Of a DNA stretch of 64,000 nucleotides, positions 5,601 to 59,414 are shown piece after piece. How positions within the stretch are numbered: the first letter of the stretch is position 1; every line of letters begins with the position of its first letter. The notes under the pieces are model-generated. The model saw only the letters and a list, made by a program, of their open reading frames with translations. It made no database searches and had not been told where the DNA came from. The stretch spans positions 11,118-75,117 of the forward strand of contig JBAXLJ010000003.1 in the NCBI GenBank assembly GCA_037134915.1. The letters run 5' to 3'. The DNA is from Candidatus Falkowbacteria bacterium. GTDB taxonomy: Bacteria > Patescibacteriota > Patescibacteriia > Patescibacteriales > UBA12465. A program made the translations under genes and the position numbers.

Positions 5601-5994
5601 GGTGGTAAAAGATGATATCTTGCTAAACGATAATAGTAATCCCATAATTACTACTCCTCCGACACAACAAGTCTTAGGAGAGAAGAAATATGCCGACGGC
5701 ACACTGCTTAAAAATCATAACCGAATTTATGTAGTTACCGGTGGCAAATTATTATACATCCCTAACTTAAAAGAATTGGCTAAATATCACGGCCCAATTC
5801 TTAAAGTTGACGATTCGGTAATTAATTCTTTTGTTCAGCTTTATCCTAACGGCACCTTACTTCGTGCCCAAGACGATGTTAAAATTTATGTCATTTTAAA
5901 TGGTCATAAAGTGCATCTAAAAACGATGGCTGAATTAAGAAAATATCGAGGCCCAATAATTGTCGTCACCCCTGACGAGCTAAATAATTATTAA
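2614..5994 (+). CDS. Giant secreted surface protein with tandem Ig-like/HYR/DUF5011-like modules (putative adhesin or S-layer-associated)
   Basis: 1126-aa ORF. Signal peptide (TTILLLLGLIVSSSALA). Repeated DTTAP/DNTAP/DTTKP module boundaries. HYR-like blocks (TCDPISGSTFKVGTTTISCMATDTAGNVATGTFTIEV; GDTEVTWTATDASGNQASAT). DUF5011-like blocks (LIGNNPINLTVGDTYTEQGATSTD ... AGVYTITYSVADTASN). Gly10 linker. Duplicated ~50-aa C-terminal module. Confidence 0.75.
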   Translation: MKKNKTVGFTTILLLLGLIVSSSALAVVPPPPSQGPNNGSSFAGNISAPSGNADWANANRVATSDNSYATVTITSSGDVSNYLRVSGFNFNIPAGATIKGILANIEKSDFSTVGTSHITDHVVSLVKNNVVTGNNKASLSNWTGSDATSTYGSTSDLWGSTWTPSDINNANFGLVLSVGRTSGGDKQARVDHVSLVVYYTPDTTAPTSTITAPETGSLLKGVVNLTATSSDSESGVAKVEFWHASPVNVKIGEATTSPYSINLDTSTMTDGAHDIWVEAYDKAGNHATSAAISVTIDNTAPTLHLPENISLEATNHDGELINFETSASDVNPESPAVTCDPISGSTFKVGTTTISCMATDTAGNVATGTFTIEVKDTTKPIITPPENQTFEATGPLTTPIGLIQATSTDIADINPVINHTPTEFPLGDTEVTWTATDASGNQASATSSVTITDTTAPLISLIGNNPFDMYINKDYSVLNPEPDYTVSDLVDGDNITGHVAVTVTGKDFDNTVLGSHAITYSAVDLSGNRTTSTRIVNIVNTDRPIIYRKGLSPVTVERGTTYVDAGATATDRDGSDITSLIKTNIETAPIDTSVVGTSTVTYDVTGADLGEYTGTSTADQAKRIVRVIDTTAPTATVDYSPATPTNGHVTATITPDEPVTITNNEGSNTYTFTDNGSFTFNFVDPSGNTGSTTATVTNIDRESPTINSVQAISSTTVEVIFNEDLQNNLEGHHPAISDFNIYNDLDKSNNLDEGDASYGISNVSYDLKKATLTLTEPLKPGDTPRLYVTPEDTTLIDIAGNLFNHGASFDTSVSDKIIPVLTLIGNNPINLTVGDTYTEQGATSTDIFSGVTEPINISGTVNTNTAGVYTITYSVADTASNTAAEITRTINVAARIPSGGGGGGGGGGSSFVSTFNAPTGGFQIVINNGDLDTNATSVNLKLNGGTATRMSISNINDFSNSSQEAYADTKSWQLLPGAGLKTVYAKFFDLNGTASAVVKDDILLNDNSNPIITTPPTQQVLGEKKYADGTLLKNHNRIYVVTGGKLLYIPNLKELAKYHGPILKVDDSVINSFVQLYPNGTLLRAQDDVKIYVILNGHKVHLKTMAELRKYRGPIIVVTPDELNNY
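5308..5337 (+). repeat. In-frame run of 10 glycine codons (low-complexity linker) in the giant surface protein
   Basis: ggc ggg ggc gga ggc ggc ggc gga gga gga, read in the gene's frame (5308-2614 is divisible by 3). Confidence 0.9.
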
Positions 5995-6222: not shown

Positions 6223-6747
6223 ATGCCTAAAAGTAAGATTCAAAAACAAGAAATCTTGCGAAATCTAACGGAGCGGATTAAAAAGTCCAAATCTATTGTT
6301 TTCGCGGGTTTCAATGCTTTAGGGGTTCATGACAACGAGGCTTTACGCGCCAAATTACGCGACGTAAATGGCGAATACTATGTCGCCAAAAAAACCTTAT
6401 TAGAACGAGCTCTTAAAGAACAGGGAACCTTAAATTTAGACACCAAAACCCTTGATGGTAAGTTGGCAGTAATCTTCTCTTATGAAGACGAAGTCTCCCC
6501 AGCTAAAGCGGTTGACGCTTTCCGTAAAGATAAAGAAGATAAAATCTTTTTCTTAGGCGGCATCTTAGAAGGTAAATTACTTTCTAAGACAGAAGTCGAA
6601 GCTCTAGCCAAACTTCCTAGCAAGCAAGAATTGTTGTCCAGATTGGTTGGTACTCTTAATGCGCCTGTTTCCGGTTTTGTTAACGTTTTAGCCGGTAACT
6701 TACGTGGCCTGGTCACGGTGCTTAAAGCGATCGAAGAAAAAAAATAA
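6223..6747 (+). CDS. rplJ: 50S ribosomal protein L10
   Basis: 174-aa ORF with typical L10 sequence ([34 protein letters not shown]). Lies immediately upstream of L7/L12. Confidence 0.95.
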
Positions 6748-6772
6748 TTTATTAAAATTTAATTTTAAAACT

Positions 6773-7168
6773 ATGGAAGATCAAAAAGAAGTTGTAGTAC
6801 CTGAAAAATTTCAGGACTTAGTAAGCAAAATCGAAAAAATGAGTGTTTTAGATTTAGCTGAACTTGTAAAAATCTTAGAAGAGAAATTTGGTGTTTCTGC
6901 TTCTGCTCCAGCTATGATGATGGCTGCTGCTCCAGCAGCTGCCGAAGCTGAAGTAAAAGACAGCTTTGATGTAGAACTCACTGATGGTGGCGCAACTAAA
7001 ATTGCGGTTATCAAAGTTGTTCGTTCAATCACTGAATTAGGTCTTAAAGAAGCTAAAGATTTAGTTGATGGTGCTCCAAAAATCGTTCGCGAAGGCTTAA
7101 AGAAAGATGAAGCCGAAAAGATTAAGAAAGAATTAGAAGAAGCGGGCGCTAAAGTAACTTTGAAGTAA
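6773..7168 (+). CDS. rplL: 50S ribosomal protein L7/L12
   Basis: Start moved to the ATG at 6773 (MEDQKEVV...). The track's 6704 start overlaps the rplJ end. Ala-rich hinge ([10 protein letters not shown]) and conserved C-terminal domain ([27 protein letters not shown]...EAGAKVTLK). Confidence 0.95.
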
Positions 7169-10210: not shown

Positions 10211-12061
10211 ATGTTAAAACCAACCCTTAAAACTGGCTGGCGCTTGTTAAAATATACTCTCGCTATTATAGTCGGTTTCTTTGTCTTAATCTTGATCCTT
10301 CTAAGTAATAAATTGACTGACTCCCAAAAATATTACAGCCAAATGGTTAGCGGTAAAACTAAGTTGGAAGCCGCTATTAACTCAGCCAAAACTCAAAAAT
10401 ATTCTCAGGCCCAGCAACAAGCTAGCGAAGCTACTTATCAATTTAATGCCGCTCTAAGTACCTTGTCCGACATTAGAAATAATAAAGTGGCTGCTTATTT
10501 TAGCCCAATTACAGCCTCGGTAAATGATTTAGAATATTTAACTCAAACCGCTGAAGTCCTGGGTAAATCTATAGAAAGATCAACAGCGGTGTTAGCTAAA
10601 TTAGACCAAATAAGTGGTGGTCGTTTTACTGGAACCTTTTCTGATTTGTCGACCGCAGACAGACAACAAATTTTAGCCACTATTTATGAGTCCGCTCCGG
10701 AACTAAATGGTTTAAAAGCGAACTTAGAATTATCTCTTGATAATTTAAATAAAATTCATCGAATTGGCATCCTCTTGCCAATTAACTCTCAACTGACAAA
10801 TATTAAGAATCAGCTAGCCACCGCCACCAATCTTTTGAATCAAGTAGTACCCTTAACACAACTACTACCTTCTTTATCTGGCTATCCTCAAGAAAGCCAA
10901 TTTTTAGTGTTACTGCAAAATAATGACGAGCTTCGGCCTACGGGCGGATTTATTGGTACCTATGGCCTAATGAATGTTAAAGACGGTAAAGCCGGAAGCA
11001 TTATAACTGAAGACGTTTATCATCTAGACATGCCCTGCATTGGTAAATTAACCCAGGTACCACCAGAACCCATAAAAAAATACATGAAAGTTGATTATTG
11101 GTGGTTGCGCGATGCTAATTTCTCGCCAGACTTTCCAACTTCGGCCAAACAAGTGGAGGCAATGTTTATGGCTGAGAGTGCCTGTGCTCTAAAACCAACT
11201 GCTAAACCAACCGCTATTATTGCCATTAATCCCGATTTAATCGTTGATTTATTAGGGCTAGTCGGACCGATCACTATTGATGGCACCACTTATGATCGTA
11301 ATAATTTTCAACCCCTGCTTCAATATAATGTCGAGGTCGGTTATGTTGATAAAAATATCACTTCTTGGAATCGAAAAGATATTATAAATTCCGTCGTCTC
11401 TGAACTCGAAAAACGTTTAATGTCGCTGCCGACTAAACGTTGGCCGGAAATCTTAAATGTCATCCAAGAAAATATCGCTAAAAGAAATTTACAAATTTAT
11501 TTTGATAATAACGAACAAGAAGGTGTTGCTCGCAGCCTTAATCTAACCGGAGAGATTAAAAATTCAAACAATGATTACTTAATGGTCGTTGACGCTAATT
11601 TAGCGGCTTTTAAGAGTGATTCCGTGATGAGAAAGAATATTACTTATAAGTTAAGCCAGGATAATAGTCCAACCAGAATTACGGCCGAGGTTAAGCTAAG
11701 CTACAGCCACGAGGGGGGATTTGATTGGCGCACCACGCGTTATCGAAGTTATACGAGAATCTACGCTCCTTTAGGCAGTAAACTACTAGATAGCGGCGAT
11801 CTAGAGGATTTCTCAGCAACCGACGACACCGCGCTTAATAAAACTGTCTTTGGATTTTTTTGGACCATTGAACCGGGACAAACAAAAACCGCTTCAGTTA
11901 AATATTCTTTACCAGAATATATAAAAACTGATAACTATAATTTATATTTTCAGAAGCAATCCGGTAGCCGTTTAAATAATTTCCAATTAGACAAAGCTTT
12001 CAAACCCAAAAACACCAACATCTGGTCCGGAACCTTGGATCGAGATAAAATCTTCAACTAA
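10211..12061 (+). CDS. DUF4012 domain-containing membrane-anchored protein
   Basis: 616 aa. N-terminal TM. The hallmark LLQNNDELRPTGGFIGTYG motif of DUF4012. Start lies 2 nt after the regulator's stop. Confidence 0.75.
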   Translation: MLKPTLKTGWRLLKYTLAIIVGFFVLILILLSNKLTDSQKYYSQMVSGKTKLEAAINSAKTQKYSQAQQQASEATYQFNAALSTLSDIRNNKVAAYFSPITASVNDLEYLTQTAEVLGKSIERSTAVLAKLDQISGGRFTGTFSDLSTADRQQILATIYESAPELNGLKANLELSLDNLNKIHRIGILLPINSQLTNIKNQLATATNLLNQVVPLTQLLPSLSGYPQESQFLVLLQNNDELRPTGGFIGTYGLMNVKDGKAGSIITEDVYHLDMPCIGKLTQVPPEPIKKYMKVDYWWLRDANFSPDFPTSAKQVEAMFMAESACALKPTAKPTAIIAINPDLIVDLLGLVGPITIDGTTYDRNNFQPLLQYNVEVGYVDKNITSWNRKDIINSVVSELEKRLMSLPTKRWPEILNVIQENIAKRNLQIYFDNNEQEGVARSLNLTGEIKNSNNDYLMVVDANLAAFKSDSVMRKNITYKLSQDNSPTRITAEVKLSYSHEGGFDWRTTRYRSYTRIYAPLGSKLLDSGDLEDFSATDDTALNKTVFGFFWTIEPGQTKTASVKYSLPEYIKTDNYNLYFQKQSGSRLNNFQLDKAFKPKNTNIWSGTLDRDKIFN

Positions 12062-12074
12062 AAAAATACAAAAA

Positions 12075-12102
12075 AAACTCCACTAAAGTAGTGGAGTTTT
12101 TT
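12075..12102. terminator. Bidirectional terminator
   Basis: A-run, ctccac (12078-12083) pairs with gtggag (12091-12096), T-run 12097-12102. Lies between convergent genes. Confidence 0.75.
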
Positions 12103-12120
12103 AAATAGGTAGTTATCTAA

Positions 12121-13428
12121 TTATTTTACAATACTGAAGCTAATACTATAAGTTAAACCGGAGTTTAAACCATCAACTCTGGCGTCAACCGCCTTAGTTT
12201 TAGTATCTGGAATGCTAGGCACAAACAAAGTTTGTTTGAAACGGCCATTTGCGTCAGCTACGATATTAGTAATAGAACCGCCAAAATTTATCTTTAAAGG
12301 TTCACCTGGTAAATAGCCGGCTCCAGATAAAATAACACTGGCACCGGGAGTTGCTAAATAATGATCAAAGGCTAAAGCTAAAGACTCTTTAACTTCTGGT
12401 TGATCAGGGATTTCTGAAGCCTGGATGCTAGCAATCTTCTTTAAAGAAGAATTTAACACGGCCACGCCACCGCCATTCCAAACCACCAATCTCTCGCCGT
12501 TATCAGTATTTACATATTTAATATCCAAAGCGTAACCATTTTTAGTTAAACTGGAAGCGGAAATTTTAAGACCGCTACGCAAATTATCCTTAGCTAACTT
12601 CATCACGCTATCACCATTTACGGCATAGATATAGTTGTTATCGCCGGTTGGCTCAACAGCATAACCGTTAGTCGAGCTATTTGGGTAACTAATTAGCAAG
12701 TCTCCATTTAAATCAAAATTCTTCAAATAATAATCATCAAAAACGTATAATTCTTTAGTGATTGGGTCAAAATAAGTTTTTCTTAAACTCTTGCTATCAC
12801 GATAATTAACCGGAAAAGAAGACAAGATGCTTCTAGTTCTAGTATCAAAGATTCTAACTTGATTATCTTGATTAACCGAAATAATATAACGGCCGGAAGC
12901 ATCAAAACGTACCGCGGTGGAGATATCACTGCTGATATTAAAAGAATCAACCACATCTAAGGTATTAGTGTCGACTTTCCAAAGCTTAACACTCTTGTCA
13001 CTTACTGTGGCCATATAAGGTCCAAATTTATCCACCCGGTTATACCATTCGTAGTAAGTGTTTTTCTGCTTCGCAAATAAAACTGGGTGACTTAAATTAC
13101 TTAAATCATACTTATACAAGGTGTAGCCAGAAGTTGCGTAGGCAAATAAACGATTACCTTCTACATTAAGTTTTACGGCTGAAAAATCTTCAGTGTGATC
13201 CAGTGGGGAATTAGGAGCCTTGAATTTCAAAACTCTAAATAAGCTGGAGCCGTTTAGCTTAAAAACCTCCAGGCTACCACTGTTAGTTGAAGCGATGATT
13301 AAATCATTATTATAAGAGACGGCGTCGCCGGAATAATAAGATTTGTAATTAGTGCGACCGATAGTAGTAATAGCTAGAACAGCCATCACGCAAATAACCA
13401 CCAGTCCCATGATTTTTTTCATATTCAT
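12121..13428 (-). CDS. Secreted beta-propeller-like (WD40/YVTN-like) protein with C-terminal Ig-like domain
   Basis: 435 aa. Signal/anchor (MGLVVICVMAVLAITTIG). Repeated blade-like segments (NRLFAYATSGYTLYKYDL, SVKLWKVDT, RYIISVNQDNQVRIFD, NYIYAVNGDSVMKL). Confidence 0.45.
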   Translation of the reverse strand: MNMKKIMGLVVICVMAVLAITTIGRTNYKSYYSGDAVSYNNDLIIASTNSGSLEVFKLNGSSLFRVLKFKAPNSPLDHTEDFSAVKLNVEGNRLFAYATSGYTLYKYDLSNLSHPVLFAKQKNTYYEWYNRVDKFGPYMATVSDKSVKLWKVDTNTLDVVDSFNISSDISTAVRFDASGRYIISVNQDNQVRIFDTRTRSILSSFPVNYRDSKSLRKTYFDPITKELYVFDDYYLKNFDLNGDLLISYPNSSTNGYAVEPTGDNNYIYAVNGDSVMKLAKDNLRSGLKISASSLTKNGYALDIKYVNTDNGERLVVWNGGGVAVLNSSLKKIASIQASEIPDQPEVKESLALAFDHYLATPGASVILSGAGYLPGEPLKINFGGSITNIVADANGRFKQTLFVPSIPDTKTKAVDARVDGLNSGLTYSISFSIVK

Positions 13429-13571: not shown

Positions 13572-13611
13572 ATAAAGTCTAAGATCTTTAACAATCAAAA
13601 ACCAAAATATC

Positions 13612-14691
13612 ATGAAAAAACTAATTTTTCTCGCTTTTTTAGCGATTATTAGCTCTTCTTTAGCGGCTCAGCTAAGCGCCGTTCATCACTATCTACCAGT
13701 TTTATCAGCTGAACAGGCCCGGTCTTATAAGGGGTATGATTTTATTATCCCCGACCATGAAGTAATTTTCAATTCGCCAGAAAACCTAAAACTGATGCGA
13801 AAAGACAATCCGGGTTTACAAATCTTGGTCTATGCCAACAAAATTGAATGGCACGAGCCAATGTTCAGCGACAAACCCTGGAGCCTTAAAATGGTGGCTG
13901 AACTTCAAAAATACCCTAAATGGTTTCTTCGAGACCTCTTAGGTTATAAATTAGAATTTTGGCCAGGGACCGTGCTCATGAACTGCCGCCTTGATTGTCC
14001 GCGATATATAATCAACGGTAAAAGTTATTCTTACATTGAATACTTTACTGAAAATTATATTAAGGAAGTAATCGGCGCCTACCGGAAAGCTGGCATTCGT
14101 CTCGATGGTCTGCTAGATGATGAGCTGCTAAAATCAATTAGTTTCATCACTCATTACGGCAAAAACCGTAATAATGTCGATGGCGATGGTGACGGCTTAA
14201 ATGATGACCCTAACGAATTTAATCGTCAGTGGCGACTTGGTAATGCCTATTTTCTAAATAAAGTACGCGAAGCTATGGGACCGGATTTTGTTATCATCGG
14301 TAACGGCGGTCACGGTTATTATCTAGATTACTGCAACGGGAAGATGTTTGAATACTTTCCGGAGGTTTATCTAAATGAAACAGATCAACTAACTGAGGCC
14401 TGGCCAGAAAACATGAACCATGCGGCCGGAATGGAAATCGCTATCTTTAACGCCCGAGCCAACGCTTACGGCAAAAAGGATAACTGGTTATTTACCTTGT
14501 GTTCAGCAATGATGCTGGATCAAGTTATTTTTTCTCATGGACAAAATATGCCCTATGATGAGAAATATAATTTACATTTAGGTAAAGCCCTCGGGAATCA
14601 TTACCAGGTCGGTAATGTTGTCAGCCGAAAATTCGCCAAAGGAATAGTTCATGTCGATCCAGTCGCCAAAAAGGCCTGGATTGAAAGATAA
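13612..14691 (+). CDS. Secreted glycoside-hydrolase-like TIM-barrel protein (GHL15/GH114-like); paralog of the N-domain of 32263-34260
   Basis: 359 aa. Signal peptide (LAFLAIISSSLAA). Colinear similarity to the 665-aa protein: NPGLQILVYANK vs NPRVKIIAYISS, WFLRDLLGYKLEFWP vs WWLRDESGNRLSDWP, VIIGNGGHGYYLDYCNGKMFEYFP vs IIVANGSFIWDYQNYLNGWMLEDFP. DGDGDGLNDD insert. The family name is my recollection, not a search result. Confidence 0.5.
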   Translation: MKKLIFLAFLAIISSSLAAQLSAVHHYLPVLSAEQARSYKGYDFIIPDHEVIFNSPENLKLMRKDNPGLQILVYANKIEWHEPMFSDKPWSLKMVAELQKYPKWFLRDLLGYKLEFWPGTVLMNCRLDCPRYIINGKSYSYIEYFTENYIKEVIGAYRKAGIRLDGLLDDELLKSISFITHYGKNRNNVDGDGDGLNDDPNEFNRQWRLGNAYFLNKVREAMGPDFVIIGNGGHGYYLDYCNGKMFEYFPEVYLNETDQLTEAWPENMNHAAGMEIAIFNARANAYGKKDNWLFTLCSAMMLDQVIFSHGQNMPYDEKYNLHLGKALGNHYQVGNVVSRKFAKGIVHVDPVAKKAWIER

Positions 14692-14706: not shown

Positions 14707-16083
14707 TTATTTAAGCGGCTCCTTTTTAATTTTATGAATTGAGATTATCATCAGTAGACTGCCCGAGAGCGACCAAAAGATCCACTGCATCACCGCATCC
14801 TTTAAAATATTATCAGTGGCACTCGCCGCCAGTAAGCTAATGGTGAAAAAAAATAAAAACAAAATTAACATTTTAAGGCGTGGTCTAGCTTCTAGTTTAA
14901 AGCCCAGCCACATATTTTTTAAATAAGCCATAAATATCCACACAAAAGCCAGTAGGGCAAAGATGCCTGATTCCAGCCATACTCTCAAGTAATCATTATG
15001 GGGCTCCGTCTCCACTAAAAAGCGAGGAATATTATTTTGAATAAAAATAGAAGCGGTGCCAGGACCATAACCAAACCAAGGACTCGCTTTAATAAAAGAC
15101 CAAATATCGCGCCACAAATCTAAGCGCCAAGTTGAAGAATCGGAAGCACCTAGAGTCATCAAAGTAGAAACTCGATCCTGAAAAAAAGGCGCAAATAAAT
15201 ACAAAACAGCGGCCGCTAAAATTGAAATAAATAATAATTTTCGAAAACGATAGATACCAATACCAAAAAGAATTAAAGCTAAAGCGAGCCAAGCCGCCCG
15301 AGTATAAGTAAAGAGTAAGGCCACTACAAAAAAGATGGCTAAAAGAGCGTAGGGAATTTTTTCAATCACCCCCTTTTTTAAATTTAAAGACACAAATAAA
15401 CTTAAACAAATAACCAAAACTAAATAAAAAGCCAACATATTAGGATGAACAAAGGTGCCCATCAGTCGCCACCTGTCACCGTCAAAAAAACCACCCCGAG
15501 TCAGCAACTGGTACCAGGCGACACTGGCGGGAATAATGGCCGAAAATATTATGGTTTTGATTAAGAAAGTTAATTTTTTAGGCGTGTCATAAATTAAATA
15601 ACCAAAAACAAAAGCTGAGAAAAAACTCAGCAAACGAAAAAAATCAACCGCACTCGCTGATTTACTAAAAGAAAAGAAAGATAGAACAGCTAAAATGCCT
15701 AAAAATGAAAGCCAAGGGAATCGCAATGGTAAATTTTTTAATTTAGACCACTTTAATATAACCGCTAAAACAGCTAGACCGATTAACATCATGCCCAAGA
15801 CAAAAGTGAAGTCTATGGAAATTCCGGAAATATTTATTAGTTCCTGGGTTCCTAAAGAATCAAAAGTCGTTCGAAGCACCAGTAAAGCCAAAAAACCAAT
15901 TTTTAAATCAAACAAGGAGTAAACAAAAATAGCCAAAGCAACCAATAAGAAAATTAAGCCTAAACTGCTACCTGGCCAAATAAAAGACAAGATAATCGAA
16001 AAAAGGGAATAAAGACCGAGGGCTAAGAAAATCAGTTTTAAGCGGCCCGCTGCAGCTTCTTTATTAGGTTTACTTTCTGTCAT
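14707..16083 (-). CDS. O-antigen ligase / Wzy-like polytopic membrane protein
   Basis: 458 aa with about 10-12 TM helices. Wzy_C-like segment (YTRAAWLALALILFGIGIY) and a large loop with HNDYL. Confidence 0.7.
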   Translation of the reverse strand: MTESKPNKEAAAGRLKLIFLALGLYSLFSIILSFIWPGSSLGLIFLLVALAIFVYSLFDLKIGFLALLVLRTTFDSLGTQELINISGISIDFTFVLGMMLIGLAVLAVILKWSKLKNLPLRFPWLSFLGILAVLSFFSFSKSASAVDFFRLLSFFSAFVFGYLIYDTPKKLTFLIKTIIFSAIIPASVAWYQLLTRGGFFDGDRWRLMGTFVHPNMLAFYLVLVICLSLFVSLNLKKGVIEKIPYALLAIFFVVALLFTYTRAAWLALALILFGIGIYRFRKLLFISILAAAVLYLFAPFFQDRVSTLMTLGASDSSTWRLDLWRDIWSFIKASPWFGYGPGTASIFIQNNIPRFLVETEPHNDYLRVWLESGIFALLAFVWIFMAYLKNMWLGFKLEARPRLKMLILFLFFFTISLLAASATDNILKDAVMQWIFWSLSGSLLMIISIHKIKKEPLK

Positions 16084-16130
16084 AAAAAATGATATTATTT
16101 ATATATAAATATTAAGGAAAATTGTCGTTT

Positions 16131-17345
16131 ATGTCAAAGTTAAAAATAATCCAAGTTAATAAATTTTTTTATGCCAAGGGCGGAGCAGACAAATATTTCT
16201 TAACTCTAATTGATAAATTATCAGAATTAGATATTGAAGTCGTCCCCTTTGCGATGGCTGACCCCCGAAACATCGACTCTTCTTGGAATCGGTATTTTTC
16301 GGAAAACATTGATTACCACCAGCCAAAAAATGTTTGGAAAATGGCTTTACGTTTAATTTGGAACCGGGAAGCAGCTAAAAAATTTGGTCAGCTTTTGGAC
16401 GAAACTAAACCCGATTTAGTTCACGCTCATAATATTTATCATCAACTATCGCCAGCGATTCTGCTGGAAGCTAAAAAAAGAAAAATTCCTGTTATCATGA
16501 CGCTTCATGATTATAAACTGATTTGTCCTAATTATTTAATGTTCTCCCATGGCAAACCTTGTAATAAGTGTTTAAAAGGTAATTACCTACACTGCTTAAC
16601 TAGCAACTGCTATAATTCTTATCCGCGTAGCGCTTTAGCGGTGCTAGAAACTTATTTACATAATAAAGTTTGGCATACCTATCAAAATAACGTAGATCTT
16701 TTTATTTCTCCCAGTGAGTATTTAAAACAAATGATGATAAGTGCTGGTTGGCCGGCGGATAAGATTAGAGTATTAATTAATCCGGCGCCCACTTACAAAG
16801 AAACCAGTGATGGTCAAAATTTATTATATTTTGGCCGCTTAGCTGTCGAAAAAGGAGTAGATGTTCTACTGCGCGCTCTAAAGCTAACCAACGAAAAATT
16901 AGATATCGTTGGCACTGGACCCGAAGAAACAAACTTAAAATTACTCACTAAAGAATTAGGCTTAGCGGATCGAGTGGCTTTTCACGGAAATCAAGCCGGG
17001 GAGAATTTGGAAGAATTTAAACGAATAGCAAAGGCAGTAATCTTACCTTCGGTTTGGGCGGAAAATATGTCTTTAGTTTTACTAGAATCTTTAGCTTACG
17101 GAAAATTAATTATTGCTAGCGCTAGTGGCGGCACCCCTGAGCTAATTAAAGATGGGGAAACCGGCTGGCTATTTTCTCCAGGTAATTTCCAAGAACTAGC
17201 TCAAAAGATCAAAGAATTAAACCAGTTAAGCCCAGAAAAAAGAAAAATAATGACTGGTTTAATAAAAGATAAAATAGTGCCCCTGGAGCTAAAAAACCAC
17301 CTAAATAGTCTTATAGACATTTACAAACAAGTAAAAAATCGCTAA
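16131..17345 (+). CDS. Glycosyltransferase family 4 (GT-B)
   Basis: The ATG at 16131 (MSKLKIIQVNKFF) is preferred over the TTG at 16122. GT4 C-terminal motifs (FGRLAVEKGVDVLL, PSVWAENMSLVLLESLAYGKLIIASASGGTPELIKDGETGWLF). Confidence 0.85.
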   Translation: MSKLKIIQVNKFFYAKGGADKYFLTLIDKLSELDIEVVPFAMADPRNIDSSWNRYFSENIDYHQPKNVWKMALRLIWNREAAKKFGQLLDETKPDLVHAHNIYHQLSPAILLEAKKRKIPVIMTLHDYKLICPNYLMFSHGKPCNKCLKGNYLHCLTSNCYNSYPRSALAVLETYLHNKVWHTYQNNVDLFISPSEYLKQMMISAGWPADKIRVLINPAPTYKETSDGQNLLYFGRLAVEKGVDVLLRALKLTNEKLDIVGTGPEETNLKLLTKELGLADRVAFHGNQAGENLEEFKRIAKAVILPSVWAENMSLVLLESLAYGKLIIASASGGTPELIKDGETGWLFSPGNFQELAQKIKELNQLSPEKRKIMTGLIKDKIVPLELKNHLNSLIDIYKQVKNR

Positions 17346-17380: not shown

Positions 17381-17409
17381 TTGACAATTTTTAATTAATG
17401 TATTATAAT
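17381..17409 (+). promoter_or_regulatory. Promoter P1 upstream of the Wzz-like gene
   Basis: TTGACA (17381-17386), 17-nt spacer, TATAAT (17404-17409). Confidence 0.6.
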
Positions 17410-17442
17410 AGAGTTATTACTAAGTCAGACCCGATAAATATA

Positions 17443-17471
17443 TTGACAAATATGTTTATATGTTTTAAAAT
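17443..17471 (+). promoter_or_regulatory. Promoter P2 upstream of the Wzz-like gene
   Basis: TTGACA (17443-17448), 17-nt spacer, TAAAAT (17466-17471). Confidence 0.55.
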
Positions 17472-17507: not shown

Positions 17508-18380
17508 ATGGACACTAAAGAATTTATCAAGTTAGCTAAAAAGAGAAAAATGACTGTGATTAGTATCACCTTAATTTTTGTAATCATTGGCTTAATCGTG
17601 ACCTTAGCTCAACCTTTAAAATATCGATCAAAATCAAGATTACTGATTTTACAACCTGACACCGCCGCTGATGCTTACGCTGTAGCCAGATCAAACCAAT
17701 ATGTGGGCGGTTTAATTTCTGAAGTTATTTACTCTGGATCATTCCTAGATTCCTTAAACTCTTCAAGTTATGTTTTTAATCGTAACTATTTTAATGGTAC
17801 CTATAAACAGAATATCAAGGAATGGAAAAAAACTGTGTTTGCTAAATCCGGTGGCGATACGGGAGTGATTGATATTGAAATCTATCATACCGACCCCGAG
17901 GAAGCTAGAAAAATTTCACTAGCCGTTAACCAGTTAATTATTTCCGGACAAAGTCCTTATAAATTTAACGCCAACCAGACCAAAATTAGCGTTATTGATG
18001 AACCAGTAGTTTCCTCTTTTCCAGTTAAACCTAATATTATTCTTAATTTAGGTTTAGGTTTGTTATTCGGTTTTTTATCTGGCTGTTCTTATATTTATTT
18101 ATTTCCTAAAGAAAGGTTATCAGAGAAAATGGCTAAAGAGCTATTTGGCCAAGAAAGGGTTAGTCAGGCACCAAATTTTAAGGTCGCTGAACCCGCTTTT
18201 ATGCCAGAAACTACGGTAAGTAATTATCAACCAGAAATGGTTCCGGTTAATCTACCAATTTATTCTCAAGAAACCGAAGAATTACCTCATATTATTTCTG
18301 AAGTAGCGGAAATTCCACAACCTAGTTTTAAGACATCTTTTAACTTTAAAGGTAATATCAGTAATGTCCTAGGAGAATAA
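17508..18380 (+). CDS. Wzz-like polysaccharide chain-length determinant protein
   Basis: 290 aa. N-terminal Wzz pattern (EFIKLAKKRKMTVISITLIFVIIGLIVTLAQPLKYRSKSRLLI). Second TM near residue 180 (ILNLGLGLLFGFLSGCSYIYLF). Confidence 0.65.
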   Translation: MDTKEFIKLAKKRKMTVISITLIFVIIGLIVTLAQPLKYRSKSRLLILQPDTAADAYAVARSNQYVGGLISEVIYSGSFLDSLNSSSYVFNRNYFNGTYKQNIKEWKKTVFAKSGGDTGVIDIEIYHTDPEEARKISLAVNQLIISGQSPYKFNANQTKISVIDEPVVSSFPVKPNIILNLGLGLLFGFLSGCSYIYLFPKERLSEKMAKELFGQERVSQAPNFKVAEPAFMPETTVSNYQPEMVPVNLPIYSQETEELPHIISEVAEIPQPSFKTSFNFKGNISNVLGE

Positions 18381-18468
18381 TTTATTCTCCTTAAGACTTG
18401 AGCGCCGAAACGAAATTTCGACCCTCGAATCTTAAAACGTAATTTAACAACTAAAAAAATAATAAATC
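18371..18468 (+). promoter_or_regulatory. Left copy of a ~100-nt two-hairpin leader element, preceding the 18469 gene
   Basis: Palindrome AGGAGAA-N7-TTCTCCT (18371-18391). It shares TTCTCCTTAAGACTT (18385-18399), a 27-nt hairpin (18400-18426), GAATCTTAAAA (18427-18437) and TTTAACAA (18443-18450) with the reverse complement of 21517-21619, in the same order and nearly the same spacing. Confidence 0.7.
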
Positions 18469-19305
18469 ATGAAAAAAACTCTCGTTTTTGCGTTTTTAAT
18501 GGTCCTAGTATTAGGTGCCAGCGCTCAAGAATTAATTCTGATTGGTGGTGGCGGTTTAAGTAAAACTGATACTATCTCGACCGGGAATTACGGCTTTGCG
18601 CAAGCACGGCTAATGATTCCTCTTGCTGCCGGACTGAGAATCGGCCCTTACCTGGGCTACGTCCAATATGGTGGTACTGAACTCAACAAAACTCCGCACT
18701 CCGCTTTTTTGGGAAAAGAGTTGAGTTATGGAATATCGTTCGACTCTTACGGGCATCTTTCGTATGCCACGTCGTATTATTTCTGGTTGAATACCGGTGC
18801 GAAACAAGTGTCTGATAAGTTTGAAGACAACTTGTATAAGTCCGACACTAAAACTAAAGAGTTCTTTGCTTCCGGTGGTTTCTTTCTGACCGATGATTGG
18901 TTGGGCTGGTTCGGTAACAACCGCATCATGTTCGACTACCAAAAACCCAGTAGCGCCAAAATTAGCGCGACCTGGAAAGGATCAGCGGTTGCTAGCACTC
19001 CTTATAACAAAGAATCCTTAAGATTATTTTTAGAAAGTGGGGTCAAACGCTTTGGGAATGAAAATTCTCTCAACGTTGAACCATTAATCCACTTGGGTTA
19101 TGGTCAAGATTTTGGTCGCAGCCAAAATTACTACGAAATAGGTGGAGGTCTCGATCTCGGCTTATTCAAGGAATACTATCGGGATGTTTTGAAAGTTAAA
19201 GTTTTTTATCGTAAAGACTTTAGTGGCCAAATACCCGGAACTTTATGCGGGGAGCTAGTTTTCAACGCCTCTTCACTGATACAAGCAATTAGAAAAAACA
19301 AATAA
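18469..19305 (+). CDS. Hypothetical exported protein with outer-membrane beta-barrel-like sequence character
   Basis: 278 aa. Signal peptide ending ASA|QE. Gly/aromatic-rich alternating strands (RIGPYLGYVQYGG, ELSYGISFDSYG, YYFWLNTG, GGFFLTDDWLGWFG, IMFDYQ, YYEIGGGLDLGLF, LKVKVFYRKDF). Local GC is clearly above the window background. No family recognised. Confidence 0.45.
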   Translation: MKKTLVFAFLMVLVLGASAQELILIGGGGLSKTDTISTGNYGFAQARLMIPLAAGLRIGPYLGYVQYGGTELNKTPHSAFLGKELSYGISFDSYGHLSYATSYYFWLNTGAKQVSDKFEDNLYKSDTKTKEFFASGGFFLTDDWLGWFGNNRIMFDYQKPSSAKISATWKGSAVASTPYNKESLRLFLESGVKRFGNENSLNVEPLIHLGYGQDFGRSQNYYEIGGGLDLGLFKEYYRDVLKVKVFYRKDFSGQIPGTLCGELVFNASSLIQAIRKNK

Positions 19306-19321
19306 AAGGAGGGAAAAAGTC

Positions 19322-20266
19322 ATGAAAAAATGGTATGTTATTTTTACAGCAATTATGCTGGTTATTGCATCTGTATTTATTATCAAACAGTGTTCTAATA
19401 CAGATGTTACAGAAAAACAAAAAACCGTCACCGAAGATCCCTGTGCCAAAGAAAAGGCCAGGGCCGACAGTTTACAAGCCGAACTCGACAAGTGTCCTGG
19501 CCGAGTTAAACCAAAGACCGATAAGGAAAGAATAGCTGAACTTGAGAAACAATTAAAGAATTTATCTGGCCGAGGTGGCAGCCGATCTAAAACTGTTAAA
19601 GTTAAAGTGCCAACTGGCGACCTTACTGAAAAAAACTTTAGCAGCGGCGGTTTTGCACCGATTAACTCATCTAAAAGTACAGAAATTATTCCCGGTGGCA
19701 ACGCTACCTTATCGACCACCTTATACGAAGGTGGACTCGAAGGTGACTTTTGCACCACCATTGATGCTACTGGCCACATTGTTTACGCCATGAAAAATAG
19801 CGTTTTCTTAGCCGGTAAGCCAAGTATTCCAGCGCCAAGGTTAAATGGTGAAAATGGTCAGGAAATGCAGTTAGACAAAGAAAGTGGTTGGTGGTTCTAT
19901 GCCGATGGTCGTTTGATTTCTGTTCAAGAAATCAACAATTATCAATACGCCGTGGAATGGAATGTCTATATTGGACAGACCAATTACGGTTCCGGCTCGT
20001 ACCCCACCTACCTCCCACACCAAATGCTGAAGCCTCTCATTAACAAAACAAGAGGTAAAGAATGGGGAGAAATCTCCGATGAAGATCTGACTAAAATGCG
20101 GGCCGAAAATCCCAATATCTGGACAGCCAGTTCTGAAGGTGGTTTACGCCCATTTAGATTAGATAGCGAAAACGGACGCGCTCTGGGCAAAGAAGATCGT
20201 AACCTTTACCAAGGTTGGAACTTCCGGACCCGGATATACGCGCAGAAGAAGACAACAATCAACTAA
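19322..20266 (+). CDS. Hypothetical membrane-anchored protein: N-terminal TM, coiled-coil/basic linker, globular C-domain
   Basis: 314 aa. TM (WYVIFTAIMLVIASVFII). Charged coiled-coil (AKEKARADSLQAELDK...KERIAELEKQLKNL). One of only three strong SD sequences I noted among the start sites I checked in this window (AAGGAGGG, 7 nt before the ATG). No family recognised. Confidence 0.45.
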   Translation: MKKWYVIFTAIMLVIASVFIIKQCSNTDVTEKQKTVTEDPCAKEKARADSLQAELDKCPGRVKPKTDKERIAELEKQLKNLSGRGGSRSKTVKVKVPTGDLTEKNFSSGGFAPINSSKSTEIIPGGNATLSTTLYEGGLEGDFCTTIDATGHIVYAMKNSVFLAGKPSIPAPRLNGENGQEMQLDKESGWWFYADGRLISVQEINNYQYAVEWNVYIGQTNYGSGSYPTYLPHQMLKPLINKTRGKEWGEISDEDLTKMRAENPNIWTASSEGGLRPFRLDSENGRALGKEDRNLYQGWNFRTRIYAQKKTTIN

Positions 20267-20287
20267 TTGATTTAGTCTTCAAATATA

Positions 20288-20317
20288 GGGGCTTCGACAA
20301 TCGAAGCCTCTTTTTTT
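20288..20317 (+). terminator. Rho-independent terminator of the 18469-20266 unit
   Basis: ggcttcga (20290-20297), loop caa, tcgaagcc (20301-20308), then T7 (20311-20317). Confidence 0.8.
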
Positions 20318-20397: not shown

Positions 20398-21516
20398 TTA
20401 TCCAAGCTTGACGGTAAAGCCTCCGATTTGAGCTGACTTCAGATTCAAAATCTGGAGTCGTCCACATAATTTATCGGTACTCCAGACAACCGAACCGCTA
20501 ATATCAACACTACCCGATGTACTTAGGGGCCAGAAATCAATTTCCTGACCGTTCGCCATCACTATGTTTACCGTGTAATAATTAGCATCCGAGGAAGCTA
20601 CTAAAGCCACGTTCTGCTGAGTTCCGGAATCAATGGTGTACTTTAAAGTGGCGGTTCCAGAGTTAAATAAGGTTTTCTGAAAATATAAAACCAAATTTTG
20701 AACCCCAGAAACAGTCGTTAAGGTTCCGCGAACTTTAGTATCGCCAAATGAGCCGGGAAGCGAAGCCGTAATCACGTCCTTCGAAATAGCTCCGTCTTTA
20801 ACATATAAGGCATAAAGACCATCAGATTGACGATAAATACTGCTAAGATCATAAGCCCAAACGCTACCGATTAACCAACCAAAACGAACCTTCTGACCAT
20901 TACTTGCAATAAAACTCCACTTGTAATATTTAAGGCCATTTATAGTCGCAATATCCGAAGCTAGTAAAGGGGCATTAGTCCAGGCAATGCTTGGCAGCAT
21001 TTCGTACTGCACCTGAGCATTCTGAGGCGTCGTCGCATTAAAACCGTTAATAATATCAGCTCTTAAACCGAGGGTAATAGTATTAACCCCGGCGCTGGTA
21101 AAAGTGCTGGAAATTACCACAATCGCGGTTTCGCCACTGGGTGTTACCACTACGGCATTTTGAGCTTTTAGATTAAAGGTTTTTGTGACAGCCGGGCTGA
21201 CAGTGTTGTCAACCGCTTTAACTATATAAACTCCTTTAAGAAATTTAGCGGTAACCACATCGCCAGTTACGATCGGCGAATTATTACCAAAATCGAAAGT
21301 AGCCGCTATCTTGGTGCCATTTTTTTCTAAAGTGAAAACCACTAAAGTATTAATAGGCACCATCAGGGTATCACCAGCCAGCGTCGCGCTCGCTGATTTC
21401 AGTTGGTAAACGCCCGTCGCCGGACTTACCGGATCCGGGGTAGTTACACTTTGCGGCCACTTTGTGCAGGAGGCCAACATAACCAAAGACAATAACAAAA
21501 ACAGAAAATTTCTCAT
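20398..21516 (-). CDS. Hypothetical lipoprotein, beta-rich (Ig-like/beta-sandwich character)
   Basis: The ATG at 21516 (MRNFLFLLLSLVMLASC) is preferred over the track's TTG at 21546. Lipobox LASC. T/V/S-rich beta-strand composition. No family recognised. Confidence 0.5.
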   Translation of the reverse strand: MRNFLFLLLSLVMLASCTKWPQSVTTPDPVSPATGVYQLKSASATLAGDTLMVPINTLVVFTLEKNGTKIAATFDFGNNSPIVTGDVVTAKFLKGVYIVKAVDNTVSPAVTKTFNLKAQNAVVVTPSGETAIVVISSTFTSAGVNTITLGLRADIINGFNATTPQNAQVQYEMLPSIAWTNAPLLASDIATINGLKYYKWSFIASNGQKVRFGWLIGSVWAYDLSSIYRQSDGLYALYVKDGAISKDVITASLPGSFGDTKVRGTLTTVSGVQNLVLYFQKTLFNSGTATLKYTIDSGTQQNVALVASSDANYYTVNIVMANGQEIDFWPLSTSGSVDISGSVVWSTDKLCGRLQILNLKSAQIGGFTVKLG

Positions 21517-21619
21517 GATACAAATTTTTATTAAATTGTTAAACAATACTTTTAAGATTCAAGAACCCGAATTTCCTTCCGATTCTTAAGTCTTAAGGAG
21601 AACGAGTCGTTCTCCTTAA
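21517..21619 (-). promoter_or_regulatory. Right (inverted) copy of the two-hairpin leader element, preceding the 21516 gene
   Basis: Palindrome with 13-bp arms at 21593-21619 (core AGGAGAA...TTCTCCT). Blocks aagtcttaaggagaa (21588-21602), ttttaagattc (21550-21560) and ttgttaaa (21536-21543) are reverse complements of the left-copy blocks. 27-nt hairpin at 21561-21587. Confidence 0.7.
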
Positions 21620-21628
21620 AGATAGAAA

Positions 21629-22735
21629 TTATTTTAAAACCTCTTGATACAAGTTAATGGTTTGTTGAGCAATATTATCAGCGTCGTATTCCGTTTTCAC
21701 CCGAGCTAAGGCCTTGGCGCCTAGAGCCGCTAAATCATTGGGGCGGCTTAACATGTCTTGAAGTTTAGCTTTTAAATCTAAGTAATCACCGCTTTTAAAA
21801 GAAACACCGGTGTCACCTAAGGCTTCTAGGTTAGGTTCGATGTCAGAGACTAAGCAAGGCCGGGCGTAAGCCATCCCCTCAAGCAAGGCAAAAGATAAGC
21901 CTTCAGATTCTGAGGGCTGAACAAAGATGGCGGTGTTAGAAAATAATTCTTTAAGAACCGGGCCATTTTGATTACCAGTAAAGATAATATTGGGATTATT
22001 CTGAGCTAAATCATGCAATTCTTTAACATAGTCATCGGTATAAGAACCATCACCGACAATAACTAATTTTTTATCGGTGGTAATTTCCTGATAAGCTTTA
22101 ATTAAGAAATGCACCCCTTTATGTCTGACTAAACGGCCGATATAAGAAATGTAATTATCTTTTGTTAAACCCCACTTAGCTATTTCTTGAGCTGGCACCA
22201 AATCATTTAACTTAGCTGAAGAAGGAATATATACCGGATCGTTATTATATTTTTTCTTGGCATATTTGAGTAGGGAATGAGATGTGATAATCACTTTATC
22301 AGAGAGTAGATTGCCAACTTTCTCACCAAACTTTAAATAGGCTTTAGCAAAAGAGCCCCATTTTTGATGGTAGTAATCCTGACAATGAAAAGTAAAGACA
22401 ATTTTAGTTCGAGGATTCAAAATTCTAGCTAGCCACAACATGGAAGCTGGTCCAATCGATTGGAAATGAATCACGTCATATTTGCGACGCACCAAATCAA
22501 GACAAGCAAAGAGAGTGGCGGTAATAGCATCTAAATTTTTAGAAGGTATGCTCGGCACTGTAATAATTTTAACACCCTGCCATTCCTTTAAATTTTCTGG
22601 ATTATAACTTGAACGGGCATAAACAAAAACTTCATGGCCATTTTTTACCAAGTTAACAGCCAAATCCTCAACCTGGCGTTCAACACCGCCAGTCTTGGTA
22701 GGAATTCCTTTTTGTCCAATAAAAGCAATTTTCAT
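21629..22735 (-). CDS. Glycosyltransferase family 4 (GT-B)
   Basis: 368 aa. MKIAFIGQKGIPTKTGGVERQVEDLA N-terminus. C-terminal EGLSFALLEGMAYARPCLVSD motif. Confidence 0.85.
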   Translation of the reverse strand: MKIAFIGQKGIPTKTGGVERQVEDLAVNLVKNGHEVFVYARSSYNPENLKEWQGVKIITVPSIPSKNLDAITATLFACLDLVRRKYDVIHFQSIGPASMLWLARILNPRTKIVFTFHCQDYYHQKWGSFAKAYLKFGEKVGNLLSDKVIITSHSLLKYAKKKYNNDPVYIPSSAKLNDLVPAQEIAKWGLTKDNYISYIGRLVRHKGVHFLIKAYQEITTDKKLVIVGDGSYTDDYVKELHDLAQNNPNIIFTGNQNGPVLKELFSNTAIFVQPSESEGLSFALLEGMAYARPCLVSDIEPNLEALGDTGVSFKSGDYLDLKAKLQDMLSRPNDLAALGAKALARVKTEYDADNIAQQTINLYQEVLK

Positions 22736-22836
22736 AAGATATAATCTATTTTCTTTCTAATTTATAACTTTATAGTTTAAAACTTTAACTATATTTTGTC
22801 AATAGAACTATATCATAATATACTAATATTGTCAAG

Positions 22837-27903: not shown

Positions 27904-28842
27904 CTAATCTTTTAAGGGGTGAAATTGTTTTTGAGTTTTTTGAGCATAAGAATCGGAGGCATGAACATAACGAGTGGTGGTCTCTAGCGATTCATGCCCC
28001 AGAAGAACCTGAATTGCCGCCGGATTAGCGCCCGCCTCAGCCAAATAGGTAGCAAAACCATGCCTTAAAGAGTGAGCCGAAATCGGCAAGTTAATATCTA
28101 ATAATTCGCGATATTTTTTAATCGTATTTTGTAAATAAACCGGGGAAATTTTTCGATCTTTAGCCGTCGCATTTTGACCACGATAAGGAATGAAGGCAAA
28201 GAGGGAATCATCAGTCCTAGTGACTAAATAAGCCTCTAAATGGCCCCTAGCACGTGGCGTTAAGTAGACAAAGCGCTCCTTCTTGCCTTTACCCAAAACA
28301 AAGATTCGCCCGGCTTTATCAATCTGTTTTATTTTTAAATTTATGAGCTCAGAAATTCTCATTCCGGTGGAGAAGAGGACCTCAAGCATGGCTCGGTTCC
28401 TTAGACCGATTAAACGGTTCTTTTCAAAACTCGAGGGAAACTGCAATAATTTAACAAATTCGTCAAGTTCGGCAATTTGTGCATTTTTTTTAGTAGTTTT
28501 GAGCATTTTAATCATATCCGGAGCAATCGGTGAAGGGTAGTCCATTTCAATTAAATAACGGAAATAAGAACGCAAAACTGACAACATGCGGTTAATTGAA
28601 TAAGCATTTAAACGCGTTTTAGATTCTTGAGCTAAAGCCGTCTTACGATCAACTGAAGTTAGTAGCGCCTTATAGTTTAAAATATCTTTTTTGGAAAGTT
28701 TTTTAAAACTAATAGAATTATCAAACAAAAAATCTTCAAAGACCTTAAGGTCACGCTCATAATTATAATGGGTTTCCGGGGAATAGTTATTAACTTTCAA
28801 ATTGAGCAGAAAGTCATCAAACAGTGGTAAATTTTCACTCAT
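27904..28842 (-). CDS. Tyrosine recombinase XerC/XerD family
   Basis: 312 aa. N-terminal SAM-like domain. C-terminal catalytic motifs (GMRISEL, HSLRHGFATYLAEAGANPAAIQVLLGHESLETTTRYVH). Confidence 0.85.
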   Translation of the reverse strand: MSENLPLFDDFLLNLKVNNYSPETHYNYERDLKVFEDFLFDNSISFKKLSKKDILNYKALLTSVDRKTALAQESKTRLNAYSINRMLSVLRSYFRYLIEMDYPSPIAPDMIKMLKTTKKNAQIAELDEFVKLLQFPSSFEKNRLIGLRNRAMLEVLFSTGMRISELINLKIKQIDKAGRIFVLGKGKKERFVYLTPRARGHLEAYLVTRTDDSLFAFIPYRGQNATAKDRKISPVYLQNTIKKYRELLDINLPISAHSLRHGFATYLAEAGANPAAIQVLLGHESLETTTRYVHASDSYAQKTQKQFHPLKD

Positions 28843-59369: not shown

Positions 59370-59414
59370 CATCTTACAAACTCGTCCATTAATAACTTAA
59401 AAAATAAATGAATC

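Follow-up and report, generated by a model that had tools for sequence, protein, structure and literature searches.

What keeps a stretch of about 100 bases in two inverted copies around three genes of an envelope locus, and is it DNA or RNA that is under selection? The question is raised by a 64 kb stretch of a Candidatus Falkowbacteria bacterium genome (contig JBAXLJ010000003.1, positions 11,118 to 75,117; hereafter the window, meaning the whole stretch that was analysed), in which protein family scans of the genes identify a locus with polysaccharide-assembly functions. The Wzz-like protein encoded there matches an NCBI entry assigned to Candidatus Falkowbacteria at 100% identity. The element, which we call E, is present as copy A at 18371-18468 (+) and copy B at 21619-21517 (-), one at each end of a cassette of three genes for envelope proteins (p278, p314 and a lipoprotein). 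Each copy comprises, from 5' to 3', a 9-bp hairpin (H1), an abutting hairpin of ~18-20 bp (H2), a TTTAACAA box and the ATG of a cassette gene. In all likelihood E is an authentic structured RNA that has not been described before, probably acting in processing, stability or the insulation of translation; that it is a conserved cis-acting RNA with a role in processing and stability, carried within two convergent operons, is a reading to which we would give an even chance.

An initial annotation of the window, from which the bracketing of the three-gene cassette by inverted copies was absent, had described the same layout in both copies, and all the sequence features that it listed are present. 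The identical 15-mer that it reported, TTCTCCTTAAGACTT, occurs in the window exactly twice with no mismatches, at 18385-18399 (+) and 21602-21588 (-), and the composite TTAAGACTT-N27-GAATCTTAAAA matches these two sites only, even at three mismatches (0.05 matches were expected from shuffles, and none of 100 shuffles gave two or more). An inverted-repeat search returned the same pair as the longest inverted repeat of the window (I1; 67 nt, 75% complementary, 3112 nt apart). The switches between G-C and A-T noted at pairs 1-27, 5-23 and 9-19 of the 27-nt insert are correct, as is the exchange of TA for CG in the inner stem of H1. The insert does fold as a hairpin, but H2 is longer than had been proposed, since the conserved flanks TTAAGACTT and GAATCTTAA also pair together; the inner stem of copy A has 11 bp, interrupted by one C.C and one C.A mismatch. 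Similarly, the view that H1 begins at or just after the upstream stop codon holds for copy B, where it starts 12 nt past the stop of the GT4 gene (21631-21629), but has to be amended for copy A, where the 5' arm lies within the Wzz-like gene and encodes its last codons, L-G-E-stop, the TAA (18378-18380) spanning the junction of 5' arm and loop. Copy A has a minimum free energy of -22.2 kcal/mol (z = -4.4) and copy B one of -30.5 kcal/mol (z = -3.9); none of 200 shuffles was as stable, and the complementary strands of both copies fold equally well.

Only 18 clusters homologous to p278 were found in a protein collection of 5.8 billion sequences. Their contigs, together with two loci recovered through Wzz, gave 30 related Patescibacteria loci of conserved synteny (identified below by L numbers), from which 24 distinct copies of E were aligned and scored against the two-helix structure. 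Standard pairs fill 94.0% of the cells, compared with 86.7% in shuffles, and 16 of the 27 pairs show changes on both sides; the observed value was not reached by any of 500 shuffles on any of five pairing measures, pairing fell to 33-57% when the partner was slid by 1-3 columns, and RNAalifold, run independently, returned the same two helices. The conserved pairing suggested by the initial annotation is therefore borne out by further homologues, the pairs of which keep their complementarity. Pair 10-20 of H1 is A-U, G-C or G-U, and the H1 core changes from GGAGAA/TTCTCC to GGAAAA/TTTTCC in L027 and L033 (on the GT4 side, hereafter the GT side). At the base of H2, U-A becomes G-C in L027 and G-C becomes A-U in L018, while the inner pairs 38-59, 39-58, 42-55 and 45-52 each occur as three to five pair types. 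Irregularities of the helix are conserved: pair 34-63 is U.G (or C.A), pair 40-57 is C.A or C-G, pair 38-59 is either standard or a mismatch of two pyrimidines, and C32/A65 is unpaired. The inner part of H2 measures 27 nt (range 26-28), and the length of the helix is almost invariant.

More distant junctions retain the shape in other letters. On both sides of L033, in the outgroup L035 (Wzz 42% identical) and on the GT side of L016 the sequences are unrelated to E, but there are again two hairpins followed by (A/T)TTAACAA, the hairpins abutting in L033 and L035 and lying 3-14 nt apart in L016 (z = -3.1 to -4.4). On the evidence of these comparative alignments, the hairpins are shown to be under selection for pairing, and the two-hairpin shape is shown to outlive the sequence. 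In the 24 copies we found no conserved unpaired core of the riboswitch type and no multi-helix junction; there are two simple hairpins with conserved positions mostly in stems, and YGNAA is the only conserved loop. Permissive Rfam scans of both copies gave AgrB as the best match, in copy B only and, with 29.7 bits, below its threshold of 40; no family was common to both. This agrees with the initial annotation, which had not recognised the element as a known riboswitch or leader class, and we found no literature account specific to E. E is real, novel and strongly constrained, structurally simple and confined to one locus.

The distribution of E is narrow. Searches with nhmmer and with a covariance model found exactly one E per junction and none elsewhere in 264 kb (the window and 20 loci), only two copies per locus. 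True matches of a pattern scan through genome and metagenome collections (L001-L004 and L006-L010) all fall at this locus; matches in the viral contig L011 and the metagenome L005 were discarded as GC-rich chance matches without hairpins. The pair flanks the cassette as inverted repeats in L008, L012, L018, L020, L022, L025 and L026 also. The Wzz-like C-terminus ...GNIxNVLGE* is common to 69 protein clusters, and the loci fetched here therefore probably understate the spread of E; remoter homologues end in ...GNIxNIL(K/R/N). Across 103 Wzz homologues the C-terminal motif is GNIxN(V/I)L, to which the E-carrying clade adds G-E-stop. As these last codons are supplied by the 5' arm of H1, an arm of the structured RNA overlaps coding sequence. 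E tracks the gene downstream of it and not the one upstream, because L028, which is without the lipoprotein gene, has no second E after GT4.

It could be argued that such repeats are the termini of a mobile or horizontally acquired cassette (MITE (miniature inverted-repeat transposable element)-, REP (repetitive extragenic palindrome)- or attC-like). The 3.1-kb segment that they bracket has a GC content of 0.42-0.46 in the window, compared with 0.32-0.38 in its flanks, and exceeds its flanks by 2-7 points in all eight genomes examined (the window and seven related loci). However, all relatives, the outgroup L035 among them, have the cassette at one and the same place in the chromosome; neither a transposase nor an integron integrase is encoded at the locus, no target-site duplication is evident, each locus has two copies, the collection-wide scans match this locus only (chance matches aside), and the protein trees of p278, Wzz and GT4 are broadly congruent. 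We find a mobile origin scarcely credible. A foreign origin of the cassette in general was also rejected, because the GC excess is slight and every relative shows it at the same place; it is a lasting property of base composition and does not point to recent transfer. A dispersed repeat, whether REP/BIME (bacterial interspersed mosaic element), MITE or Correia-like, was likewise rejected, given that only the two junction copies were found in the 264 kb and the collection scans.

Sequence is constrained as well as shape. The core of E is 92-95% identical between the window and L012, L026 or L007, compared with 60-75% (nucleotide) for the Wzz, p278 and GT4 genes. Conservation above that of the flanking genes argues for selection on sequence as well as on pairing, and thus implies a specific partner. 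One candidate is a dimeric regulator that would bind E as palindromic DNA operators and co-regulate both arms of the cassette, as the initial annotation had entertained. Indeed the half-sites AGGAGAA/TTCTCCT and TTAAGA/TCTTAA are nearly invariant, and the same sites stand at both junctions. Against this hypothesis, double changes keep pairing in the spacer-proximal pairs of H1, in the H1 core (L027 and L033), in the base of H2 (L018, L027 and L033) and throughout the variable 27-nt insert, which an operator would not require; pairing outlasts sequence change in the H1 core and in the base and inner stem of H2, and distant loci retain the two hairpins in unrelated sequence. Furthermore, no promoter overlaps the sites, and the 19 proteins scanned around the locus include no regulator, and in particular not the winged helix-turn-helix regulator that the initial annotation had mentioned. 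An operator is most unlikely.

Near-consensus sigma-70 promoters precede the Wzz-like gene and the GT4 gene (Table 1), those upstream of the Wzz-like gene being the likely source of the copy A transcript, and a shared terminator lies between the convergent cassette genes. The simplest reading of these predicted signals is a layout of two convergent operons, P-Wzz-like-E-p278-p314-T and P-GT4-E-lipoprotein-T, in which E would be transcribed in the same sense as the gene downstream; L016 has the same promoter and terminator layout. Because E sits between sigma-70 promoters and T-tract terminators and has neither itself, it is intercistronic. For hexamers spaced 16-18 nt apart, the promoter scan of E gave a single match, TTAACA-16-TATCAT in copy B, the -10 of which overlaps the ATG and which is absent from copy A. 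A promoter inside E was rejected, as there is no consistent -35/-10 and the TTTAACAA box lies in the 5' untranslated region (UTR) of two genes with canonical promoters.

The initial annotation had named a cis-regulatory leader among the possible roles of E. A true 5' leader would require that the final codons of the upstream gene contain a promoter hitherto unrecognised, with transcription starting a few bases before H1 and the hairpins acting as 5' stabilisers or as a regulator site. Hexamers resembling a -10 (TAATAT, AGTAAT) do occur 5-18 nt 5' of H1 on both sides in several genomes, and the downstream genes of L016 and L033 stand behind terminators and so seem to need a promoter of their own. 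These hexamers, however, are accompanied by no -35 element, none passes the consensus scan, the conserved GNIxN codons account for those on the Wzz side, and the genome otherwise uses near-perfect -35/-10 promoters. With canonical promoters preceding the upstream genes and none in E, a leader with its own promoter seems quite improbable.

The same signals bear on the proposal, also part of the initial annotation, that E is an attenuator. In its broader form, a leaky or factor-dependent terminator would end the upstream gene and fix the ratio of enzyme to envelope-protein transcripts. The upstream stop codon either coincides with the start of the hairpins or is no more than 12-20 nt away from it, and the equivalent GT-side junction carries a canonical terminator (GAGTGGCGACGCTC, then a T-tract) and an AT-rich hairpin in place of E in L016/L009, and H2' followed by T8 in L033. 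It should be emphasized, however, that in all 24 copies H2 is followed by A-rich sequence and not by a U-tract, and that the terminator scan of the locus does not flag E and yet finds T-tract terminators at 20287-20311 and 22861-22842, GC-rich hairpins with T-tracts lying between the convergent cassette genes and after corA. Nor is the sequence conservation of E required of a terminator, and E has gone from behind GT4 in L028, which lacks the lipoprotein gene downstream. A canonical intrinsic attenuator is thus improbable, with no U-tract after either hairpin, and the broader form is unlikely.

The 3' part of E should be seen in the context of translation initiation in this genome, from which Shine-Dalgarno (SD) sequences are nearly absent: an SD core (GGAG, GAGG or AGGA at -20 to -4) precedes only 2 of 52 genes. 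One of the two is p314 (AAGGAGGG, 19297-19321), the SD of which is shared only with L016 and L009 and absent from other relatives. TTAAC or TTAATAAC occurs 22-26 nt 5' of the ATG in 6 of the 52 genes. Among these are the genes at 13612 and 59415, which encode secreted proteins; canonical promoters place their predicted transcription start sites ~35 nt 5' of the ATG, and TTTAACAA or TTAATAAC lies ~10 nt into the predicted 5' UTR. Because it is found inside the predicted 5' UTRs of promoter-bearing genes, the TTTAACAA box is part of a translation-initiation leader and not of a promoter. TTAAC/TTAATAAC may be a leader or translation signal in a genome lacking SD sequences, although over the 52 genes the TTTAACAA box is not a genome-wide upstream motif. 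In E the box would belong to an A-rich translation-initiation leader, and the 3' part of the element resembles an ordinary 5' UTR of the genome. The AGGAG of H1 was considered as a ribosome-binding site for the downstream gene; this is unlikely, for it lies ~95 nt 5' of the ATG, is paired in H1, and SD is barely used.

We return to the reading of E as a processing and stability module, the mechanism of which we infer as follows. On the mRNA, two coaxially abutting hairpins would stand just 5' of the unstructured, A-rich, SD-less initiation region of an envelope-protein gene. In this ~30 bp helix the enzyme cistron would be split from the envelope-protein cistron or cistrons, either by an endonuclease specific for double strands (RNase III-like) or through a dedicated binding protein, and the hairpins would stay as protective ends. 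The downstream message would keep the leader GAAUCUUAA...UUUAACAA...AUG, similar to the 5' UTR of the independently transcribed genes for secreted proteins described above. A site for RNase III calls for at least ~20 bp of double-stranded RNA, in which internal loops are common, and H2, with 18 modelled pairs and internal mismatches, stacked on the 9-bp H1 and conserved in length, is sufficiently long. As both arms of the cassette carry the same module, coordinated expression of p278/p314 and the lipoprotein is proposed.

Several observations weigh against this interpretation. Start sites, processing and transcription across E are predictions from consensus scans. The covariation cells are partly inherited rather than independent events, and the near-invariant Watson-Crick stems (the H1 core and the H2 base) are unusual for an RNA selected for pairing only; these stems point to a sequence-specific partner. 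The GT-side junction carries a hairpin with a T-tract in two lineages (L016 and L033), and the position can therefore host a terminator, as would fit an attenuator. Mean fold energy hardly separates the strands (-25.4 kcal/mol for the sense, -24.8 for the antisense, the sense being better in 13 of the 24 copies), and the C.A at pair 40-57 in 12 copies is U.G on the other strand. A strand call from fold energy was accordingly abandoned, the strands not being different; only the count of G.U against A.C leans to the sense strand, with 53 cells (12 columns) of G.U and 20 of A.C; overall, 94% of cells pair when the sense strand is read and about 89% when the antisense is. The excess of G.U and the promoter layout favour the sense RNA, though they do not prove it, and the antisense strand or single-stranded DNA may yet be the folded form. 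Possible alternatives to processing are leaky attenuation, a leader transcribed separately from a promoter that escaped recognition, and a translational operator bound by a protein.

The inverted arrangement has left its own traces. In three assemblies (L012/L013/L014) and in L027 the order is GT4-E-p278, the other junction of L012 being Wzz-E-lipoprotein, so that the cassette runs the opposite way to that of the window and all other loci. Mis-assembly is unlikely, because the two L012 copies share no identical run longer than about 36 nt. In neighbour-joining trees of p278, GT4 and Wzz (which carry no support values) L012 is nested among L008, L026 and L007, all of standard orientation, and L027 lies outside, which implies at least two inversion events. 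Identity between the two copies within a genome reaches 98% in L008 (where the closest copy from another genome stands at 85%), 91% in L012 and 90% in L025; it is no more than 68-72% in the window, L026 and L018, and gene conversion is thus episodic. Both inversion and conversion are explained by the two modules being inverted repeats, and the inversion pattern looks like occasional homologous recombination; on our preferred reading, recombination between the modules would be a by-product and not their function.

The alternative is that E is a programmed DNA inversion switch, the copies being the sites of a site-specific recombinase that flips the 3.1-kb cassette and so swaps the pairing of operons and genes. 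Consistent with a switch are the inversions and homogenised copies just described, the repeats I1 flanking the segment, the near invariance of H1, and its 7-bp arms and 7-bp spacer, which is the layout of a tyrosine-recombinase core site. In addition, a XerC/D-like tyrosine recombinase gene (27904-28842, -) lies ~6 kb from the cassette and is kept in the window, L006 and L012. In contrast with this hypothesis, the H1 spacers of the window differ (TAATTTA and CGACTCG), which would block strand exchange by such an enzyme, and flipping would have no obvious on/off effect, since inward promoters and the same E stand on both sides. No sample or species shows both orientations in the assembled contigs, each set of near-identical contigs having one orientation only. 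Compensatory changes in stems would be needless for a duplex recombination site. In L033 the two sides have lost their similarity to each other, and each still has its two hairpins; in L016/L009 the GT-side copy has been replaced by a terminator and another hairpin, and L028 has lost the second copy with the lipoprotein gene, hairpins being kept on the remaining junctions. There is no dedicated recombinase adjacent to the cassette: the XerC/D-like gene, the only one near it, sits beside FtsQ-like and alanine-racemase genes and is probably a housekeeping Xer. For these reasons recombination is not taken as the function of E, and a programmed switch is very doubtful. The wider prospect, that E is bound or cleaved by a dedicated sequence- and shape-specific factor controlling the beta-barrel and its partner envelope proteins coordinately in Falkowbacteria and their relatives, or else that the pair is a true recombinase-driven inversion switch, is something of a long shot; we know of no such switch described in bacteria of the Candidate Phyla Radiation (CPR).

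Table 1. Positions of the two copies of E, the genes of the locus, the predicted transcription signals and related leader sites in the window
Feature	Position	Strand	Description
Wzy-type polymerase or ligase	14707-16083	-	
GT4 glycosyltransferase	16122-17345	+	
Two sigma-70 promoter matches 5' of Wzz-like gene	17381-17471	+	TTGACA-17-TATAAT (12/12), TTGACA-17-TAAAAT (11/12)
Wzz-like chain-length-determinant gene	17508-18380	+	upstream cistron of copy A
Copy A H1	18371-18391	+	AGGAGAATA-ATT-TATTCTCCT, 9-bp stem
Copy A H2	18392-18434	+	basal stem TTAAGA(C)TT / GA(A)TCTTAA; loop CGAAA; no spacer to H1
Copy A TTTAACAA box	18443-18450	+	18 nt 5' of ATG at 18469
p278	18469-19305	+	secreted, predicted beta-barrel; first cassette gene, directly 3' of copy A
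p314	19322-20266	+	membrane-anchored, no Pfam match; second cassette gene
GC-rich hairpin and T-tract between convergent cassette genes	20287-20311	.	shared terminator of both units
Lipoprotein	20398-21516	-	PKD-like and CBM56 domains; third cassette gene, directly 3' of copy B
Copy B TTTAACAA box	21536-21543	-	19 nt 5' of ATG at 21516
Copy B H2	21553-21595	-	basal stem as copy A; inner stem different yet pairing; loop GGAAA
Copy B H1	21596-21616	-	AGGAGAACG-ACT-CGTTCTCCT; starts 12 nt past GT4 stop
GT4 glycosyltransferase, DUF1972 type	21629-22735	-	upstream cistron of copy B
Two sigma-70 promoter matches 5' of GT4	22774-22835	-	TTGACA-17-TATAGT with extended TG (11/12), TTGACA-17-TAAACT
CorA gene			beyond the DUF1972-type GT4 in locus order
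TTAAC/TTAATAAC sites	13588-13595, 18443-18450, 21536-21543, 59399-59406, and 5' of 27904 and 29143		

The product of the first cassette gene, p278, carries a signal peptide and is modelled by AlphaFold2 (19 sequences) as an all-beta barrel, with a predicted local distance difference test score (pLDDT) of 83 and a predicted template-modelling score (pTM) of 0.80. The best PDB matches of the model are Gram-negative outer-membrane barrels, namely OpcA (E = 1e-6), autotransporter beta-domains (template-modelling score 0.46-0.49) and porins. The lineage is regarded as monoderm, and a predicted barrel of the outer-membrane type is unexpected in a Patescibacteria genome presumed to be so. In L020, ice-binding-like and sortase genes (4222-5868) are inserted 5' of the Wzz-like gene. 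Elsewhere in the window, rplJ-rplL, encoding ribosomal proteins L10 and L7/L12, are found at 6223-7168 (+) without the Rfam L10-leader; indeed the whole 64 kb contains no Rfam family at gathering level and no detected tRNA. A 40-nt palindrome, AAAAAAAACTCCACTA / TAGTGGAGTTTTTT, at 12046-12128 (repeat I4), lies between the convergent genes 10211-12061 and 12121-13428 and looks like a bidirectional intrinsic terminator.

Members of the CPR (Patescibacteria) are mostly uncultured, and to our knowledge few of their regulatory RNAs have been described. E is conserved above every other part of its polysaccharide and envelope locus, the surrounding proteins included, and its structure is backed by covariation; it therefore offers a tangible way into post-transcriptional control where SD sequences are nearly lacking. 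It also marks a small cassette whose first gene encodes a predicted beta-barrel of the outer-membrane type, and the inverted pair provides a clean natural case of cassette inversion and gene conversion mediated by repeats. A specific protein partner or processing enzyme, if found, could become a genetic tool for these organisms.

How does E compare with known systems? Inverted repeats around a segment, both orientations among lineages and concerted evolution are shared with fimS, the polysaccharide-promoter switches of Bacteroides and inversions between inverted rrn operons or insertion sequences, although the repeats of E are ~100 bp long and structured, and E has no adjacent invertase gene, no heterogeneity seen within populations in the contigs and no switched promoter inside the segment. 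Integron attC sites resemble E as imperfect palindromes in which structure and stem base are conserved and the centre is variable; in contrast with attC, E has no GTTRRRY core at its borders, no intI gene and no array of cassettes in the same orientation, but two inverted copies at a fixed locus. The REP sequences of malE-malF and the processing of papB-papA offer a closer parallel, in that stable hairpins lie between cistrons whose products are probably needed in different amounts, the E operons having enzymes upstream and envelope proteins downstream, although REPs are dispersed in hundreds of copies and E is found twice per locus. The intercistronic RNase III sites of the early mRNAs of phage T7 (the R1.1 type), as textbooks describe these and similar operon-internal sites, share with E about two helix turns, conserved internal mismatches, a position between the cistrons of a polycistronic transcript, the lack of a U-tract and hairpins that would remain on the products. 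E differs in its second, abutting hairpin, its strongly conserved primary sequence and its exactly two inverted copies around one cassette. E appears to be most like the intercistronic RNase III and stabiliser hairpins of phage and enterobacterial operons, among which it would represent a new and narrowly distributed motif.

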